Of a stretch of DNA of 64,000 nucleotides, positions 8,569 through 63,692 are shown piece after piece. The notes under the pieces are model-generated. The model saw nothing but the letters and a program-made list of their open reading frames with translations. It was not told where the DNA came from and searched no databases. The stretch's first letter is position 1, and each line of letters opens with the position of its first letter. Source of the DNA: Octopus sinensis (Eukaryota); assembly GCF_006345805.1 (NCBI RefSeq), contig NC_043007.1, positions 31,434,001 through 31,498,000 on the forward strand, written 5' to 3'. The position numbers and the translations under genes are program-made.

Positions 8569-8619
<51 letters not shown>

Positions 8620-8716
8620 CCCCAAAATCGAAGAACAAACACAAAGAAAAGACAACAACCCGAGTACGTGGTACATGTAAAGTATTAGCCGACGCTCAGG
8701 GAAGGAAAGAAAGATG

Positions 8717-8751
8717 GTTAAACGTTTCGAGCAAAGCTCTTCTTCAGAAAC
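8717..8751 (-). ncRNA. Minimal type I hammerhead ribozyme motif in a ~200-bp Penelope-like non-autonomous element (8616-8812)
   Basis: The minus strand reads GTTT-CTGAAGA-A-GAGC-TTT-GCTC-GAAAC-GT-T-TAAC, with a canonical CUGANGA/GAAA core, 4-bp stem II and palindromic ACGT stem III. Confidence 0.65.
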
Positions 8752-8814
8752 AGAAGGAAGTCCAATAGAAAAGGATGACAGAGGAAAAAAATCGCCAACG
8801 ACTCACATGTAGTT

Positions 8815-8845
<31 letters not shown>

Positions 8846-30255: not shown

Positions 30256-30462
30256 TATATGCATATATATGTATATATATGTTAATATATATATATATAT
30301 ATTATATATATAATATAATATATATATATATATATATATAACAATTTAGGAGTGACCCTAACAGGTCATTCGTCCACCAGAAAGAGCAGCCATAACTCAC
30401 ACCGCCAAGTAGTAGTAATTCAGAAATTAGGTGAAATTTAAAAACATTTACCCTAATTCATC

Positions 30463-30558
30463 TTTAGACGTCAACGTTTCTGTGTCATTAATGATTAAAT
30501 TAGCTTAATTAAATTAAATTAAGGCCAATCTACCATAGGTTACACTTCATCAGTAAAA
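30463..30558 (-). ncRNA. Type I hammerhead ribozyme, inverted copy
   Basis: The minus strand reads TTTA-CTGATGA-A-GTGT..ACAC-A-GAAACG-TTGA-CGTC-TAAAG. Confidence 0.7.
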
Positions 30559-30823
30559 AACCTGGGAGAGACAATATACACGAGGCGTCTGTATCGATGC
30601 CTACGGAATATCTGTCTTAAAATTTTCAAGACTGACGTATTCGCGCCAAACTTATCAGCAGTAATATAAACTGCCGATTCAATCTCAGAATTCTGAGATT
30701 GAATCGGCATTTATATTTACTGCTGATAAGTTTGGCGCGAATACGTCAGTCTTGAAAATTTTAAGACAGATATTCCGTAGGCATCGATACAGACGCCTCG
30801 TGTATATTTGTCTCTCCCAGGTT

Positions 30824-30921
30824 TTTTACTGATGAAGTGTAACCTATGGTAGATTGGCTTAATTTAATTTAATTAAGCTAATTTAATCATTAATGACACA
30901 GAAACGTTGCAACGTCTAAAA
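30824..30921 (+). ncRNA. Type I hammerhead ribozyme, copy 1
   Basis: Stem I is TTTTA/TAAAA, CTGATGA starts at 30829, stem II is GTGT/ACAC with a 55-nt insert, and GAAAC starts at 30901. Stem III is the palindrome ACGTTGCAACGT, and the GUC cleavage triplet ends at 30916. Confidence 0.8.
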
Positions 30922-31293
30922 GATGAATTAGGGTAAATGTTTTTAAATTTTCACCTAATTTCTGAACTTACTACTACTTGGCGGTGTGAGTTATGGCTGC
31001 TCTTTCTGGTGGACGAATGACCTGTTAGGGTCACTCCTAAATTGTTATATTATATATTTTCGATGACATTTTCTCTTTTCCACCAGGCCGCTGGTAGCGA
31101 TAAATTTCTATTGAATTTTTTTGCTACCCTAAATTGACTAATTGATAATTTTCTGAATAATTCTGAGATTGAATCGGCAGTTTATATTTACTGCTGATAA
31201 GTTTGGCGCGAATACGTCAGTCTTGAAAATTTTAAGACAGATATCCGTAGGCATCGATACAGACGCCTCGTGTATATTTGTCTCTCCCAGGTT

Positions 31294-31391
31294 TTTTACT
31301 GATGAAGTGTAACCTATGGTAGATTGGCTTAATTTAATTTAATTAAGCTAATTTAATCATTAATGACACAGAAACGTTGCAACGTCTAAAA
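31294..31391 (+). ncRNA. Type I hammerhead ribozyme, copy 2
   Basis: Identical motif 470 bp downstream of copy 1, with predicted cleavage after 31386. Confidence 0.8.
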
Positions 31392-31642
31392 GATGAATTA
31401 GGGTAAATGTTTTTAAATTTTCACCTAATTTCTGAATTACTACTACTTGGCGGTGTGAGTTATGGCTGCTCTTATCTGGTTGACGAATGACCTGTTAGGG
31501 TCACTCCTAAATTGTTATATTTATATATTTAGTCGATGACTATTTTCTCTTTTCCATCAGGCCGCTGGTAGCGATACTTTTCTATTGAATTTTTTTGCTA
31601 CCCTAAATTGACTAATTGAATATATATATATATATATATATA

Positions 31643-31800
31643 AGGGAAATTTTTACGAAAATAAACAAAAGACGAAGACAGGTGGTGTACAAACAAACAA
31701 ATGTATTAGTATAGCGCTCAGGAATAGAAAAAGTCTTTTACGTTCGAGCCTACGCTCTTCCACAGAAAGATACACAGAAAAAAAAACAAGGAGAGAAACA
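31643..31800 (-). mobile_element. ~200-bp Penelope-like non-autonomous element with minimal hammerhead motif (CTGTGGA core)
   Basis: The minus strand reads TCTTT-CTGTGGA-A-GAGC-GTAG-GCTC-GAAC-GT-A-AAAGA, with one core A missing. It sits in (TA)n. Confidence 0.7.
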
Positions 31801-31806
31801 ATATAA

Positions 31807-32467: not shown

Positions 32468-33135
32468 CATACATACATACATACATACATACATACATAC
32501 ATACATACATACCTATACCACTACCCTAATTTCACTTTACAATCACGTGGTTTCGGGTTCAGTCCCACTGCATGGCACCATATGCAAGTGTCTTCTACTG
32601 TAGCCCCGAGACCATCAGTGCCCTCTGAGTGGATTTGATAAACGGAAACTGTGTGGAAACCTGCCACGTGTGCTTGTTTGTTTGCTTGTGTGTGTGTGTG
32701 TGTTTGTGTTTGTTTCCCTCCATCACTTCACAACAGGTTTTGGTTTAACCTCCTCGTAACTTAGCAGTTCGGCAAAAGAGATTGATAAAATAATTAACAA
32801 GCTTAAAAAAAATAAGATCGACTAAACTCTTTTAGCCAGCACGCTAGCATCGTGGCAGTCGAGTGACTGAAGCATGTATGTACATTCGCCATAACAGATC
32901 GTTAGTCACTAAACCTTTTTTTATTTTCTCTCTCTGCTTATTTCTGTGATTCTAACGGAGAGCGTCGGCTCCAAATGTAAAAGACTCTCTTACTTCCCGA
33001 GTGTTAAACTAATACCTCTGTTTGTTGTTTACACACCTGTCTTCGTCTTTTATTTATTTATCTTTTTTTTTTTAGTAAATTCTCACTAAGTAGCTTGTTT
33101 ACCAACCACATGGTTCTGGGTTCAGTCCCACTGCG

Positions 33136-33235
33136 NNNNNNNNNNNNNNNNNNNNNNNNNNNNNNNNNNNNNNNNNNNNNNNNNNNNNNNNNNNNNNNNN
33201 NNNNNNNNNNNNNNNNNNNNNNNNNNNNNNNNNNN
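33136..33235. other. Assembly gap (100 N)
   Basis: A run of N interrupts a SINE head. Confidence 1.
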
Positions 33236-44540: not shown

Positions 44541-44623
<83 letters not shown>

Positions 44624-44830
44624 ACGGGAAGCTTTATGAAAATAGACATAAGACGAAGGCAGGTTTACGGAAATAAACAAATGACGAAGGCAGGTGGAAT
44701 ACAAACAAACAATTGTATTAGTATGGCGCTCAGGAAATATAAATAAAACAAGTCTTTAACGTTTCGAGCCTACGCTCTTCAACAGAAAGATACACAGAGA
44801 AGAAACACAGAAAGAAAGAGAGAGAAAAAA
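44624..44830 (-). mobile_element. ~200-bp Penelope-like element with minimal hammerhead motif (CTGTTGA core, 44752-44790)
   Basis: The minus strand reads TCTTT-CTGTTGA-A-GAGC-GTAG-GCTC-GAAAC-GT-T-AAAGA. (TA)n flanks it. Confidence 0.75.
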
Positions 44831-48804: not shown

Positions 48805-48906
48805 GATAGGTATTCTGATAAACTTATCCAAACACATGTTCACTGTATGATTTTTAACAAAACGCAAACAACTTTTTATTCTCTCTGCTTATTTCTTTGT
48901 GTGTTC

Positions 48907-48943
48907 CTTTCTGTTGAAGAGCGTAGGCTCGAAACGTAAAAGA
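48907..48943 (+). ncRNA. Minimal hammerhead motif (CTGTTGA core) in ~170-bp element 48870-49035
   Basis: CTTT-CTGTTGA-A-GAGC-GTAG-GCTC-GAAAC-GT-A-AAAG. Confidence 0.65.
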
Positions 48944-49034
48944 TTTTCTCACCTTCCCGAGCGTTAAACTAATACACCTGTTGTTGTTTATGCACCTGTC
49001 TTCATCTTTTGTTTTTCTGTAAATTTCATCCATC

Positions 49035-49112
<78 letters not shown>

Positions 49113-49153
49113 CTCCTACACGCATTTTTTCTCTCCTTGTTTCTTTTCTGTGT

Positions 49154-49193
49154 GTCTTTCTGTCGAAGAGCGTAGGCTCGAAACGTAAAAGAC
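49154..49193 (+). ncRNA. Minimal hammerhead motif (CTGTCGA core) in element 49110-49290; duplicate at ~51086-51125
   Basis: GTCTTT-CTGTCGA-A-GAGC-GTAG-GCTC-GAAAC-GT-A-AAAGAC, with a 6-bp stem I. Confidence 0.7.
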
Positions 49194-49962
49194 TTGTTCT
49201 ATTTATATTCCTGAGCGCCATACTAATACATTTGTTTGTTTGTACTCCACCTGCCTTCGTCTTTTGTTTATTTTCGTAAACCTTCCCGTTATATATATAT
49301 ATACATACATACATACATACATATATATATTACCGATACCTCATATTTCGTACCTTGAGTTCTACTACTGCAGGGAATTCTTGGGAAAGCATCCAATGCA
49401 GTGGTTTGAAAACTGAGCGACACCTGTCTTTCTTTAACCCCATTCCCAAAACTTAGGGATAACTTCCCCCCCTCCCGTCTTTACTAATCCTTTACGTTTT
49501 ATGTTTTACTTTTATGTTCCCTGTATAATTCCTCTTCCTCTTCTTACGGTATTGGACGAATTAAAAAAATACGTCTAAAACCATCTAATTTTATTAAACA
49601 TGGAAGTTTGTACCCTTTTCAATCCTCACAGACTTCTCGCTCCTTCGAGAACATTATCCTAACCTTTATTCACTTGGCCAATGCTCATTGATTAGTTATC
49701 CATTAAATCAAGTGTTATCCGATAATACCATGTCCCATATATATAGTCGCCATGATAGATCGGTAGCCACTACACACATTTTTTTCTCTCTCCTTTTTTT
49801 CTCTCTCCTTGTTTTTTTCTGTAGAAGAGCGTAGGATCGAAACGTAAAAGACTTTTTCAATTCCTGAGCGTTATACTATACATGTTTGTTTGTACAACCA
49901 CCTGTCTTCGTCGCTTGTTTTTTTTTTTTTTCGTGAACTCTCCCTATATATATATATATATA

Positions 49963-49999
<37 letters not shown>

Positions 50000-50512
50000 T
50001 ATCTTATTTTAAAACTGCTGAATCTTGATATAAGCTTCGTTACTTTGTCTCTCTCCACCAGGCAAAGAAAACGATATCTTATAGACATCGTTATATTCGT
50101 GACACGCGCGTTTATAGTAACGCGCTTACGATGGTTTTTTTTCTTCTTTTCTCCATGGCTGCCGCAGTGAAAATGTACCCACGCGTTTACTTATTTATAG
50201 ATAAACAGCGTTAAGTGATTTCTTCTTCTTCTTGGGTCAGAGGAGCAATGTCAGTAACCGGAGACGCACTCTTTGTGTCGTTTGCCTGTTCTTATATTTC
50301 TTATTTTTATTTAGTGTCATGTTGCACCATTGACATACACCAAGATCAACACCTGGTTTACTATGACTTATAGTAAAATGTTACTTAATGTTGCGATTCA
50401 AAAAGTCTATTTATATTATTATACCTGCAATGAGAAACATCTTAGCAATAATGACAATTCTTGCTAAGAAAGGCAACGGAGACAACTCCGAAATTTAAAC
50501 TGAATAAAGAAG

Positions 50513-50675
50513 TGCGGGTGTGGTTGTGTGGTGAGAGGTTTGCTTCCCATACACGTGGCGTCGGGTTCAGTCCCATTGTGTGGCACCATCGGCAAGTGTC
50601 TTCTACAATAGCACCGGGCTGAACTCACCTTGTGAGTGGATTTGGTAGACGGAAACTAAAAGAAGCCCGTCGTAT
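50513..50675 (+). mobile_element. SINE family A 5' half (duplicate at 52456-52618)
   Basis: Family A head through AAGAAGCCCGTCGTA. Confidence 0.8.
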
Positions 50676-51872
50676 AATAGAGCCAGAACACTAAGACAAT
50701 TTTTTGCCTGAACAAACGAAACATGTATTGATATTTCCCTTTAAAATCTTGGGATATTGCAAACCATATTTGTAATATCCTATGGATGGGAAATACAGCA
50801 ACAAAAACATGTGCTTTGTGGAAACGTACGTAGCAATGTATTAAAGGATTTATGAATTTCCAAACAAAAGTTCTTGCTATTACTGGAATCATCCTACGCC
50901 ACGGTGGCACCAGACCAATAACCTTCTCATAAAATTGCTGTGGAAGACGGGAATAAGCGGTGGCCGGAATAAGTAGCATAGCTTTTTATGAGCGCACTCA
51001 AAAACGTTTCACATATACGAACTGAAAGGATATATATATATTAGCTCCTACACGCATTTTTTCTCTCCTTGTTTCTTTTCTGTGTGTCTTTCTGTCGAAG
51101 AGCGTAGGCTCGAAACGTAAAAGACTTGTTCTATTTATATTCCTGAGCGCCATACTAATACATTTGTTTGTTTGTACTCCACCTGCCTTCGTCTTTTGTT
51201 TATTTTCGTAAACCTTCCCGTTATATATATATATACATACATACATACATACATATATATATTACCGATACCTCATATTTCGTACTTGAGTTCTACTACT
51301 GCAGGGAATTCTTGGGAAAGCATCCAATGCAGTGGTTTGAAAACTGAGCGACACCTGTCTTTCTTTAACCCCATTCCCAAAACTTAGGGATAACTTCCCC
51401 CCCTCCCGTCTTTACTAATCCTTTACGTTTTATGTTTTACTTTTATGTTCCCTGTATAATTCCTCTTCCTCTTCTTACGGTATTGGACGAATTAAAAAAA
51501 TACGTCTAAAACCATCTAATTTTATTAAACATGGAAGTTTGTACCCTTTTCAATCCTCACAGACTTCTCGCTCCTTCGAGAAACATTATCCTAACCTTTA
51601 TTCACTTGGCCAATGCTCATTGATTAGTTTATCCATTAAATCAAGTGTTATCCGATAATACCATGTCCCATATATATAGTCGCCATGATAGATCGGTAGC
51701 CACTACACACATTTTTTTCTCTCTCCTTTTTTTCTCTCCTTGTTTTTTTCTGTAGAAGAGCGTAGGATCGAAACGTAAAAGACTTTTTCAATTCCTGAGC
51801 GTTATACTAATACATGTTTGTTTGTACACCACCTGTCTTCGTCGCTTGTTTTTTTTTTTTTTCGTGAACTCT

Positions 51873-51945
<73 letters not shown>

Positions 51946-52987
51946 TCTTATTTTAAAACTGCTGAATCTTGATATAAGCTTCGTTACTTTGTCTCTCTCC
52001 ACCAGGCAAAGAAAACGATATCTTATAGACATCGTTATATTCGTGACACGCGCGTTTATAGTAACGCGCTTACGATGGTTTTTTTTTCTTTTCTCCATGG
52101 CTGCCGCAGTGAAAATGTACCCACGCGTTTACTTATTATAGATAAACAGCGTTAAGTGATTTCTTCTTCTTCTTGGGTCAGAGGAGCAATGTCAGTAACC
52201 GGAGACGCACTCTTTGTGTCGTTTGCCTGTTCTTATATTTCTTATTTTTATTTAGTGTCATGTTGCACCATTGACATACACCAAGATCAACACCTGGTTT
52301 ACTATGACTTATAGTAAAATGTTACTTAATGTTGCGATTCAAAAAGTCTATTTATATTATTATACCTGCAATGAGAAACATATCTTAGCAATAATGACAA
52401 TTCTTGCTAAGAAAGGCAACGGAGACAACTCCGAAATTTAAACTGAATAAAGAAGTGCGGGTGTGGTTGTGTGGTGAGAGGTTTGCTTCCCATACACGTG
52501 GCGTCGGGTTCAGTCCCATTGTGTGGCACCATCGGCAAGTGTCTTCTACAATAGCACCGGGCTGAACTCACCTTGTGAGTGGATTTGGTAGACGGAAACT
52601 AAAAGAAGCCCGTCGTATAATAGAGCCAGAACACTAAGACAATTTTTTGCCTGAACAAACGAAACATGTATTGATATTTCCCTTTAAAATCTTGGGATAT
52701 TGCAAACCATATTTGTAATATCCTATGGATGGGAAATACAGCAACAAAAACATGTGCTTTGTGGAAACGTACGTAGCAATGTATTAAAGGATTTATGAAT
52801 TTCCAAACAAAAGTTCTTGCTATTACTGGAATCATCCTACGCCACGGTGGCACCAGACCAATAACCTTCTCATAAAATTGCTGTGGAAGACGGGAATAAG
52901 CGGTGGCCGGAATAAGTAGCATAGCTTTTTATGAGCGCACTCAAAAACGTTTCACATATACGAACTGAAAGGATATATATATATATA

Positions 52988-53190
52988 GTTAATCCAAACA
53001 AGAAAACAAAAACCAAAAAACAACAACGCAAGGACGTGGAACAAATAAAGTATTATTGGACGCTCAGGAAAGAAGGGAAGAAGGAGGGTTTAACGTTTCG
53101 AGCGGAGCTCTTCGTCGGAAACATAGGAGAAGGAAAGATCCTGAGAAGGGAAGACAGAGGAAAAAAATCGCTAGTGATACAGACGAGGTC
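52988..53190 (-). mobile_element. ~200-bp Penelope-like element with hammerhead motif (53088-53122)
   Basis: The minus strand reads GTTT-CCGACGA-A-GAGC-TCC-GCTC-GAAAC-GT-T-AAAC. It is homologous to 8616-8812 and has (TA)n flanks. Confidence 0.7.
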
Positions 53191-54559
53191 ATATATATAT
53201 ATATTGAGCTTAGCCACACAACAATGCCTGTGCCTATATAACAGTAGTAGTAGTAGTAGTAGTTGTAGGTATATATCTCATGTCATGACAGCCACCCCTC
53301 AACATTCAAGGAGCGTCTACCGAAGGTAAACGAATCCTTTTGGTTGTCCCCGTCGCTTTAGAAGCCGTCGTTGTTGTTTACTCCCAAGTTAGCTCTAATC
53401 GAGTAGACTAATGATCAAAGGTGTTCCAGCAATGCCCACCCCGCCTTTTTCTTAGAGGCAGTGTTCCACTTCAGTCAATTTATTCTCTTTTACTTTAAAA
53501 ACGCTAGGGTGTGTTCGGAAGTAAATTTTACTGCTATTTCTAGTAAGACGAGCGATCGAATAGAGACTAGCTCGGTTGAAACGAACAATATTTTTAGTTC
53601 TTCCCACGGTTGAGGACACAGGATTCTCTGGTTTTCTCACAAACCGTCCCTGCCCAGTTCCTTTGCATATCAACTATACTTAAGGGAACATAAGACGCCG
53701 CCCTTAAATTTAAAAAAACAAAGTCTCAAAAATCCTCCTGGATTCTATATAAGTTGGACTTCCTATAATCTTTTTTTGATGCCCTAAAAAGATTTTTCTG
53801 AATATGCGCTGCTGGAATCGGCGTGCGACTCATAAGCCTGCTCGTCTTTTATACCATCAAATACAATATATTTTATGTCATCTTGTTGTATTATTATCAT
53901 GATAATTAGCAATTTACCATACACCTCATAATTACTGCCTTAAAAAGAAAACCGTTCTGGCTTCAATCAAGAAATTTCTAATTGCTTGTTTCGATGTAGC
54001 CATAATTAGAATTTATGTTTGTTTTCAGTTGAAGTTTCTCGTGTTTTTGACTTTCTTTTTTATTTACTTGTTCATTATTTGGTTCTTTCTAGATTTCTAG
54101 TGATTATTTTAGTGTAGCATCTCAGGAAAGGAGACGCCGGGCGCTTTTTATTTGAACGCTGAAAGCAAAAATCTCTTTCACTGGCAAAAGTAAGCCTTCG
54201 TACATATACCACGACGAGACGAGAATCTTAATGCTCTTTGACGTCCCACAAACATGCACTTAACTAAATTCGCTTAAAGTATGAAATTAAACGTTGACAT
54301 GTGAAATTCTTGATTTATCAAAATTATCTTCATCTCTACAGGATGTACCATACTCATCAAACTGCAATTAAGACTCGTTCCACTTTAGAAGTTGGGATAG
54401 TCTCAAGATTCAAGGACTCTCCAAAGCTGACATGCCATTCAGATAAAAGACAGACTTACTGTCTGGAGACAAGAGGACAATCAAGGACAAGTAATTCTGG
54501 CTCAATAACCGTTATCAGCACGGCAATAGTCTGACCTTATCTCCAGTAGCCAGAGGACC

Positions 54560-62272: not shown

Positions 62273-63448
62273 TTCTCTTATAAAATATCGGTAATGTTGT
62301 TGTTGTTGCTCCTAACTCTTTGCAGTGTTGTCGCTGCCGTTAGTTCTAAAACAGAAAAAGAGAACGAAAAGGAAATAAATGGTTTTGAGAAACGGTGATT
62401 CTTACAACTCTTACGTGATGTTGACTGGATGGACAGAAAACATGAAGTTCACGTGCCAACGAAGAACTAAATCTCTACCCGGTCGCACGAATTGCTAGTA
62501 ATAGCAGCCAACTCTCCACCCCTCGATTCATATTCTATATTACAGGCTTACATTGGATAGACTGTCTTTGTAAAATGACAGGATAACACAGGATGGAACG
62601 CCTTTGATCAGAGGTCTGTTCGATTAGGGTTGAACTGGGGTTAAACAATTAAAGGACTACAGCGACAACGGAAGGGGCCGTTTAAAGAAGGATTTATGCT
62701 GAAAGAGCAACGCATAGAACGTTCGCTTGTGTCTTTGATTTGTTTCAGGCGTTGGGCTGCGGCCATACTGGGGCAACGCCTTGACAGGTCTTAGTCAAAT
62801 GAATTAACCCCGGGACTCGTATATCTTTTAAAAAAAAAACTGGTACTTACTCTATTGGACCCTTATCCCGAACTGTTAAGTTACGGGGACGTAAACAAAC
62901 CAACACTGGTTATCAAATGGGGAGGGGCACAAAGGCAGATACACGCGCGTGCACACACACGTGCACACACACGTGCACACACGCACATATACATGCGTAT
63001 ACATATATGTATATATATGTATATATATACATACATGCATACACACACACACGCACATGCTCACACACACACACACACACACATGCACACACACACACAC
63101 ATACACACACACATACACACACATATCGTTTTTTTATTAGGTTTGCAAGGTTCTTTATGTGAATTCGGGTGGTGAAGCATATTTTGTTGTGTCTGGGGAG
63201 AGTCATCCTGTTTTGATGCCTTATTAATCAACACACTCACCGGTTCGATTTCCACTCATTTATTTTTCATTGCTTCTTGCAACCTCTTCAATAGCTGTCA
63301 TATATATATATATATATTTATATATGAGAGGTATTGGTATCCAGAAGACCCAAGACGGTAGGTAAGTCTATGTAAGTTCTACGAGAGGGCCTTAGTTAGA
63401 CTCTCTACGAGTGAGGAGTCTAATGTGGGTCTTGTGTGTGCATGTCTA

Positions 63449-63641
63449 TGTTAAATAAAATGAGACAACAAAGCCAAGGCTGTGTGGAATTTATAGGACA
63501 TTTATAAAGAGAAAGATAGTCTTACACCTATTTCTGGGATATTAGGGATATCCCAGAAACAGCTGTAAGGCTAATTTTCTCTTTATAAATGTCCTATAAA
63601 TTCCACACAGCCTTGGTTTTATTGTCTCATTTTATTTAACA
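63449..63641. mobile_element. Fold-back element (~90-bp arms) built from Penelope-like terminal sequence
   Basis: TGTTAAATAAAATGAGACAA..GGCTGTGTGGAATTTATAGGACATTTATAAAGAGAAA pairs with the right arm. GAAACAGCTGTA lies at 63556-63567. Confidence 0.85.
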
Positions 63642-63692
63642 CACACACGCTCACACACACACGCTCACACACACACGCTCACACACACACAC

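Follow-up and report, generated by a model that had tools for sequence, protein, structure and literature searches.

A natural A6U variant of the minimal hammerhead motif in a Penelope-like element lineage of Octopus sinensis

Hammerhead motifs are near-universal across the Penelope-element clades Neptune and Nematis; they are weak in vitro, and in the one reconstituted system they were dispensable for insertion. The two clades are defined by a DKG motif, a CX2-5CxxC linker plus a C-terminal GIY-YIG domain with CCHH-type residues (PMC8557442). The minimal hammerheads of Penelope elements are described as dimer-dependent and weak (PMC4209133; PMC6765202), even with a perfect core (PMC4209133), and an unpaired base after A9 is standard in them (PMC4209133). 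For a lizard Penelope, normal insertion in vitro was reported with a dead hammerhead, and the hammerhead of this element cuts only in the presence of the element's protein (PMC11167929). In the same account internal initiation was shown, and RNA ends at the cut site were not found.

Several changes in the CUGA box have been characterized. A natural A6C hammerhead is slow in Mg2+, with a rate below 0.1 per min (PMC3088659). In 0.3 mM Mg2+, an active hammerhead into which A6C was introduced cuts at 3.6e-6 per min, and A6C hammerheads are rescued by Mn2+ to 0.18-0.31 per min (PMC7151607). The change U4C is a natural viroid variant of reduced activity in vitro, the viroid being still infectious (PMC3088659), and a full mutational scan gave low activity for CUGA single mutants (PMC9901934). 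By analogy, this literature predicts slow or no cutting for a hammerhead with U at position 6. No report of a natural A6U hammerhead was found in the literature; the variants of Lunse et al. and supplement file 1 of PMC4209133, which lay outside the search, may list U6. Two of the three CUGU matches in supplement file 2 of the same paper were inspected and both fall outside the core. The accessible text of a 2026 octopus repeat annotation makes no mention of hammerheads (PMC13282606).

The motif in the window and the element that carries it

The stretch of Octopus sinensis DNA analysed here (the window) is 64,000 nucleotides long and corresponds to positions 31434001-31498000 of contig NC_043007.1. 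A U6 hammerhead motif was found at seven sites in it, compared with none in 100 shuffles, and position 6 is T in all seven. The two sites on the minus strand span 31741-31765 and 44761-44785; the other five lie at 48911, 49160, 49819, 51092 and 51750. In the five independent copies, position 7 is G, T, T, C and A, and position 17 is A or T. The motif sites, the free positions 7 and 17 and the U6 of every copy had been given in a preliminary description of this DNA, and they were recovered in the window (7/7 U6) with two corrections: the GAAAC near 31750 has lost one base, and stem II of the copy at 49819 contains one mismatch. A decayed copy near 32950 and duplicates near 51086 and 51746, also listed there, proved to be real (Table 1). 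Both duplicates lie within a tandem duplication of 1.95 kb (49098-51044 versus 51030-52988, 98.7% identical). The duplicated region, 49098-52988, is bounded by TA tracts; it could represent either a true segmental duplication or an artefact of the assembly.

Table 1. Pseudo-LTR ends carrying the U6 motif, and sister-family copies, in the window (positions relative to its first base)
Feature	Position	Strand	Core	Position 7	Position 17	Remarks
5'-truncated pseudo-LTR end, old subfamily	48874..49030	+	C3 at 48911, U6	U	A (48938)	3' end in (TA)n
5'-truncated pseudo-LTR end, middle-aged subfamily	49109..49295	+	C3 at 49160	C	A (49187)	flanked by two (TA)n tracts; 86% to full-length L095
5'-truncated pseudo-LTR end	49747..49945	+	C3 at 49819	A		ends in (TA)n
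Young-subfamily copy	44618..44830	-	44785-44759	U	U	92% to full-length L095
Copy with G at position 7	31636..31804	-	31765-31740	G		GAAAC short of one A
Decayed old copy	32924..33059	+				5' part of core eroded
Duplicate of 49109 copy	51041..51228	+	motif at 51092			within 1.95-kb tandem duplication
Duplicate of 49747 copy	51680..51877	+	motif at 51750			within 1.95-kb tandem duplication
Sister-family pseudo-LTR end, canonical CUGAAGA box (A6)	8612..8815 (ends approximate)	-	8747-8722			in-window register control
Sister-family pseudo-LTR end, A6 but U4C (CCGACGA box)	52986..53191 (ends approximate)	-	53118-53093			

Every U6-family copy in the window maps to the last 200 bases of a pseudo-LTR. 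The initial view of a dispersed family of about 200 bp was not sustained, as the copies proved to be 3' ends from a long element that is autonomous. Each of the three copies within 48870-49945 belongs to a different subfamily, and they are thus separate insertions; on the same ground a tandem array was rejected for them.

Other features of the window were recorded. An assembly gap of 100 N (33136-33235) lies beside the decayed copy, and large near-perfect inverted and direct repeats (97%) at 30328-31619 adjoin the copy at 31636. A fold-back element of about 225 bp (63433-63657, 88% self-inverted) is probably a MITE. A dispersed repeat at 50514-50676, with a duplicate near 52457-52619, recurs in similar copies across the window; it resembles a tRNA-derived octopus SINE.

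The motif has the minimal type I layout, with stem I, stem II, a base between positions 9 and 10.1, a G10.1-C11.1 pair and a palindromic 15.2-16.2. All positions of the canonical core (C3 U4 G5 A6 N7 G8 A9, G12 A13 A14, A15.1-U16.1, H17) are present except A6. Across the copies 86% of the stem cells are paired, and 96.7% of those of stem II. The initial assignment to the Penelope-type minimal type I hammerheads, with the palindrome ACGU as stem III, was upheld. The register was confirmed by a sister family whose core aligns base for base with the U6 core, with A at position 6 and no gaps in the box. Two alternative registers, one with three bases inserted into a canonical box and one with the core shifted, were ruled out, since stem I is adjacent to the C of CUG and the sister box aligns gap-free. 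An Rfam scan of the window gave 215 matches, the best 150 of which include no hammerhead family; the matches listed are weak, all under the gathering scores, and mostly microRNA models on simple repeats.

Two further elements of possible secondary structure were observed around the core. A short GAGCG-containing motif about 25-60 bases 3' of it is conserved between the U6 and sister families; it repeats the 5' strand of stem II and, by competing for the 3' strand, could give an alternative fold. Upstream, 20-55 bases before the core, CUAC in the U6 family or GGA in the sister family is complementary to loop II, and a pseudoknot is possible.

The preliminary description had proposed a search for an autonomous Penelope with this terminus, and such an element was found: traced upstream from the motif, long copies run into reverse transcriptase (RT) and GIY-YIG frames. 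The element is about 5.3 kb long and has one RT-endonuclease gene between two pseudo-LTRs, with the motif in each. A protein search of the genome yielded 5,617 candidates, of which 150 were scored; 15 close loci and 5 at 71% identity were taken. In seven of the 15 RT-bearing close loci the motif occurs twice, 4.3-4.5 kb apart, around a single gene. Among the 14 cores of these loci, U6 is present in 13 and C6 in the remaining one, and the RT regions of these seven full-length copies are 96-99.6% like the reference copy. The pseudo-LTRs of the full-length copy L095 measure about 780 bp and are 96% alike. Its frame of 1009 residues, stop to stop, contains DKG, YIDD and CSRPRCRTC (a CX4CxxC linker), together with a CxxC within the GIY-YIG box and, downstream, a His (CCHH-type residues). 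In Pfam this frame matched RVT_1 with 32.3 bits, over the cut-off of 29.6, and GIY-YIG with E=0.006, which fails the cut-off. Database relatives are 41-60% identical, many of them with both domains, and those with a named source come from shark, snail, coral and sea urchin; no named Neptune or Nematis reference protein was among the database matches. Among the 15 loci examined, a start codon could be recognised in five full-length copies, none of which has an unbroken frame, assembly errors being possible; no competent source copy was thus seen in this set. It is close to certain that this is an autonomous EN+ Penelope-like element of Neptune/Nematis type. The likeness of its motif to a coral Neptune hammerhead is a sequence resemblance and only a lead towards the Neptune clade proper.

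The copies have a fixed 3' end and ragged 5' ends, as is expected for truncated EN+ Penelope elements. In order to have a sample independent of the core, 90 copies were taken from the first 100 listed of 13,708 matches to a downstream flank motif. A TA-type tract is present at the 3' end of 81 of them, and the fixed 3' end lies 104 bases past the predicted cut site. Over up to 2.2 kb, ten young copies match L095 with 98.3-99.6% identity, indicating recent amplification. A non-LTR retrozyme or a non-autonomous SINE-like family was ruled out, since the 5' ends are ragged and long copies extend into a coding element on which purifying selection acts. Exactly where the pseudo-LTR has its boundary, L095 (1885-1893) and the other six full-length copies carry TATATAT, which matches the (TA)n target; the sister element has TTATA at the same boundary. 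From the sequence match, the boundary TATATAT suggests a priming step guided by microhomology.

Core positions across the genome and between lineages

The genome searched for core patterns comprises 2.72 Gb. The exact 27-base core gave 13,792 matches, 13,318 with U6 and 474 with another base at this position; a hand count of the first 100 of the latter gave 68 C, 23 A and 9 G. The A6 copies sampled fall in different subfamilies and so look like back-mutations. At position 17, 200 exact cores have G or C, about half of the first 100 having G. Near-identical U6 contigs were also present in sequencing runs labelled organisms B and D.

A similar picture was obtained with the 90 flank-picked copies. 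Seventeen were without a complete core through truncation or deletion and two were cut at its first bases; U6 was found in 70 of the 71 core-bearing copies, the exception being probably a one-base deletion there. In these 71 cores position 7 is T in 41, G in 11, A in 11 and C in 8, and position 17 is A in 48 and T in 23. Of 1,496 copies of the oldest type, the first 100 were counted by hand; position 6 is U in 88 of them, C in 8 and A in 4, which places U6 before every subfamily seen; no older A6 or C6 subfamily of the U6 lineage was found in this set.

Subfamilies were defined by clustering 138 copies, some of them found by the core pattern, with the core and position 17 masked. This resulted in seven subfamilies of 9-31 copies each, 2.8-13.9% from their own consensus; three further clusters, none with more than two copies, were excluded from the comparison. 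Between the seven consensuses, 0 of 26 core positions vary versus 31 of 92 downstream positions (Fisher p=2e-4). C3, G5, G8, A9, G12, A13, A14 and the A15.1-U16.1 pair are unchanged throughout. At position 7 the oldest clusters have mainly U, with some C, followed by G, A, C and U. Position 17 shifts between A and U across the subfamilies. In copies of the oldest type position 7 is C, and position 17 is C at 5 of 7 loci, two of which are apparent duplicates. The states of position 17 in the lineage are accordingly C, A and U; G is never a subfamily state, an absence based on about four changes. CpG decay, which in the preliminary description could by itself have accounted for the variation at position 7, was ruled out: this position tracks subfamilies built with the core masked and includes A and G states that such decay would not produce, and only positions 7 (all four bases) and 17 change.

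The gene was compared between the subfamily with A at position 7 and the youngest one. Differences were found at 65 of 334 fourfold sites and at 4.2% of second codon positions, which indicates that the lineage made its own protein under purifying selection while bearing U6. The chance of 0/26 core changes at the silent rate is 0.003. Other stretches of the pseudo-LTR are likewise invariant across the subfamilies, so that the conservation of the core is no proof of catalysis. A simple amplification after ribozyme inactivation, one of the two options first put forward, is not supported, since purifying selection went on acting on the gene and the remaining core well after the fixation of U6.

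A search with the canonical-box pattern gave 6,619 genome matches versus 28 for a reversed control, mostly from one family with a three-base loop II. This sister family differs from the U6 lineage at 138 of 242 fourfold sites of the gene. Stem I pair 1.4 is altered on both sides between the two, pair 4 being C-G in the U6 family and G-C or G-U in the sister family; the stem covariation whose absence would have spoken against the motif is thus present. The swap at pair 4 is one event between two related groups, not many. Young RT-bearing sister copies (L112-L114) carry U4C. The exact sister core has 8,268 matches, and a hand count of the first 100 gave 72 with U4C; both the A6 and the U4C states of the sister family occur in the window, at 8747 and 53118. 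The sister lineage fixed U4C separately, and the canonical ancestor can still be seen in this genome. In the supplement of PMC4209133, the motif of the coral Neptune has the same layout with A6, which points to A6 as the ancestral state.

The genome therefore holds a natural allelic series in matching contexts, namely canonical A6, U4C and A6U, with thousands of copies each. Both variant cores are found within full-length copies that are nearly identical, and the history of the subfamilies reveals which positions were held by selection.

Cutting and copying of the U6 motif

The 5' junctions of the copies were analysed for traces of cleavage. A hand count showed that 77 of the 90 flank-picked copies span the cut site and one begins at it, which suggests that most templates were uncut or rejoined. 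In the youngest subfamily (first 100 of 104 matches, de-duplicated by hand) the junction class that contains the cut site counts 27 versus 13 at the equivalent upstream TA (p=0.04, uncorrected). In the next subfamily the cut-site class counts 5 and its neighbours 5 and 5. Single-A junction classes fall with distance, and TA microhomology together with this gradient can explain the excess at the cut site in the youngest subfamily. The control with the canonical sister comprises 16 junctions only. Four truncated copies (G000:C2:131812463, C5:60782212, C12:3989005 and C16:38121187) show at the 5' junction short direct repeats of the bases just past the cut site, as if copying had restarted.

Folding models predict that U6 allows a pairing of U4-G5-U6 with A15.1-G16.2. 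The G5-C15.2 pair had a probability of 0.98 in both of the youngest subfamilies and of 0.2-0.85 in most of the remaining ones; three U6 copies gave 0.0, so that this fold is not universal, and all ten sister copies gave at most 0.01. Monomer folding energies were no better than those of shuffles (z between -1.1 and +1.9), as it is expected for a motif without a stem III of its own. Two-strand minimum-energy folds of two copies did not contain the active dimer, a structure for which nearest-neighbour models are not built.

These observations are probably best explained by a strongly slowed minimal hammerhead that is still held by selection and is predicted to cut rarely. Judging from the pattern of conserved and free core positions, cleavage by the U6 motif is likely to be low in rate, not lost. 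According to the proposed mechanism, the endonuclease would nick a (TA)n target, and copying would start inside the RNA at the TATATAT of the pseudo-LTR boundary, aided by pairing with the nicked (TA)n. Copying would then run back through the hammerhead, where a cut template would yield only a stub of about 105 bases; slow cutting could for this reason be cheap or useful. U6 is predicted to remove the contacts of A6. In several subfamilies U4-G5-U6 may in addition pair with the ACG needed for the two-motif stem III, by which a lone motif would be held off. The remaining core would be kept as occasional cutting, assisted by a dimer or by protein, still matters. It is doubtful, if conceivable, that A6U is itself a selected brake, the template staying uncut until protein or metal switches the motif on, with the separate U4C of the sister as convergent attenuation.

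The slowed ribozyme is favoured over three other readings. It is possible, though we consider it unlikely, that the ribozyme is catalytically dead and that the hairpin was kept for another job, such as a protein binding site near the start of copying or a part of the pseudo-LTR promoter. The strongly harmful effect of position-6 changes, including the A6C rate in 0.3 mM Mg2+ (PMC7151607), would agree with this, as would the weakness of minimal Penelope hammerheads with a perfect core (PMC4209133) and the insertion in vitro that dead hammerheads did not block (PMC11167929). The copies that span the cut site, the lack of a clear 5'-end spike and the off-state fold predicted for the young subfamilies point in the same direction. 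However, the pattern of change is hammerhead-like, as only positions 7 and 17 vary and the other core positions are fixed across seven subfamilies, and a binding site need not spare exactly these two positions. The opposite reading, in which U6 is fully tolerated, supposes that a dimer, protein or Mn2+ restores near-normal cutting, and that the cut RNA is rejoined into circles and copied through the site. A circular template would also give site-spanning copies, according to the model in PMC4209133; A6C cuts well in Mn2+ (PMC7151607), the U4C viroid is infectious despite its low activity in vitro (PMC3088659), and assistance by protein has been shown for one Penelope (PMC11167929). This reading nevertheless appears improbable, since no compensating core change accompanies U6, the Mn2+ rescue is known for C6 and not for U6, and the lizard element was reported without RNA ends at the site (PMC11167929).

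A neutral passenger, that is, one dead copy that was amplified, with an apparent conservation due to recent ancestry or to picking by the core, is hardly credible. Some of the 138 consensus copies were indeed found with the core pattern, but the 90 flank-picked copies give the same picture, and flanks and silent sites have diverged by at least 20% over the same lineage. The slowed ribozyme is thus retained as the preferred reading, and the octopus copies offer a natural test of whether Penelope elements need to cut their own RNA. Should U6 cut, the natural hammerhead core would be extended, and large families would escape CUGANGA descriptors. Should it not, the hammerhead fold would be conserved in a successful Penelope lineage for a reason other than catalysis.

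Comparison with described elements

The closest described motif is the minimal hammerhead of Neptune from Acropora digitifera (PMC4209133), with which the octopus motif shares a short stem I, the unpaired base between A9 and G10.1, the G10.1-C11.1 pair, a 4-bp stem II ending in GCUC and a palindromic C15.2-G16.2 with no loop 3. The box of the coral motif is CUGACGAA, with C at position 17, and the oldest octopus subfamily has C7 and C17. As in the metazoan Penelope elements of the same work, there is one motif per pseudo-LTR and there are many solitary truncated copies. In contrast to the minimal hammerheads presented there, A6 is replaced by U in the whole octopus lineage, the core variant described in that paper being U3-A8; its descriptor would presumably have missed U6.

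At the level of the element, the DKG RT, the CX2-5CxxC linker, the GIY-YIG domain, the pseudo-LTRs and the targeting of microsatellites agree with Neptune and Nematis as described by Craig et al. (2021, PMC8557442). Canonical hammerheads are presented there as universal in these two clades, whereas both recently active lineages examined here have a changed CUGA box. A natural change at position 6 is also known from the A6C hammerhead of phage Bcep176, which is slow in Mg2+ (Perreault 2011, PMC3088659; Naghdi 2020, PMC7151607). The phage motif differs in having C and not U, in being confined to a single phage locus and in not being a dimer-dependent minimal motif.

The mode of copying can be likened to that of the Poseidon element PAc of Anolis carolinensis, with its internal start 3' of the hammerhead, AT-rich targets and uncut RNA as the main template (Frangieh 2024, PMC11167929). 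The core of PAc is canonical, and its start site lacks homology to the nicked DNA, unlike the octopus element, where TATATAT resembles the target. Non-LTR retrozymes (bioRxiv 2026.07.22.740005) likewise carry a type I hammerhead related to Penelope pseudo-LTRs. They are described as tandem, non-coding and non-autonomous units, whereas the octopus copies are dispersed, truncated forms of an element that is coding. Both the class of element and the minimal hammerhead are already known; what appears to be new is the natural A6U.
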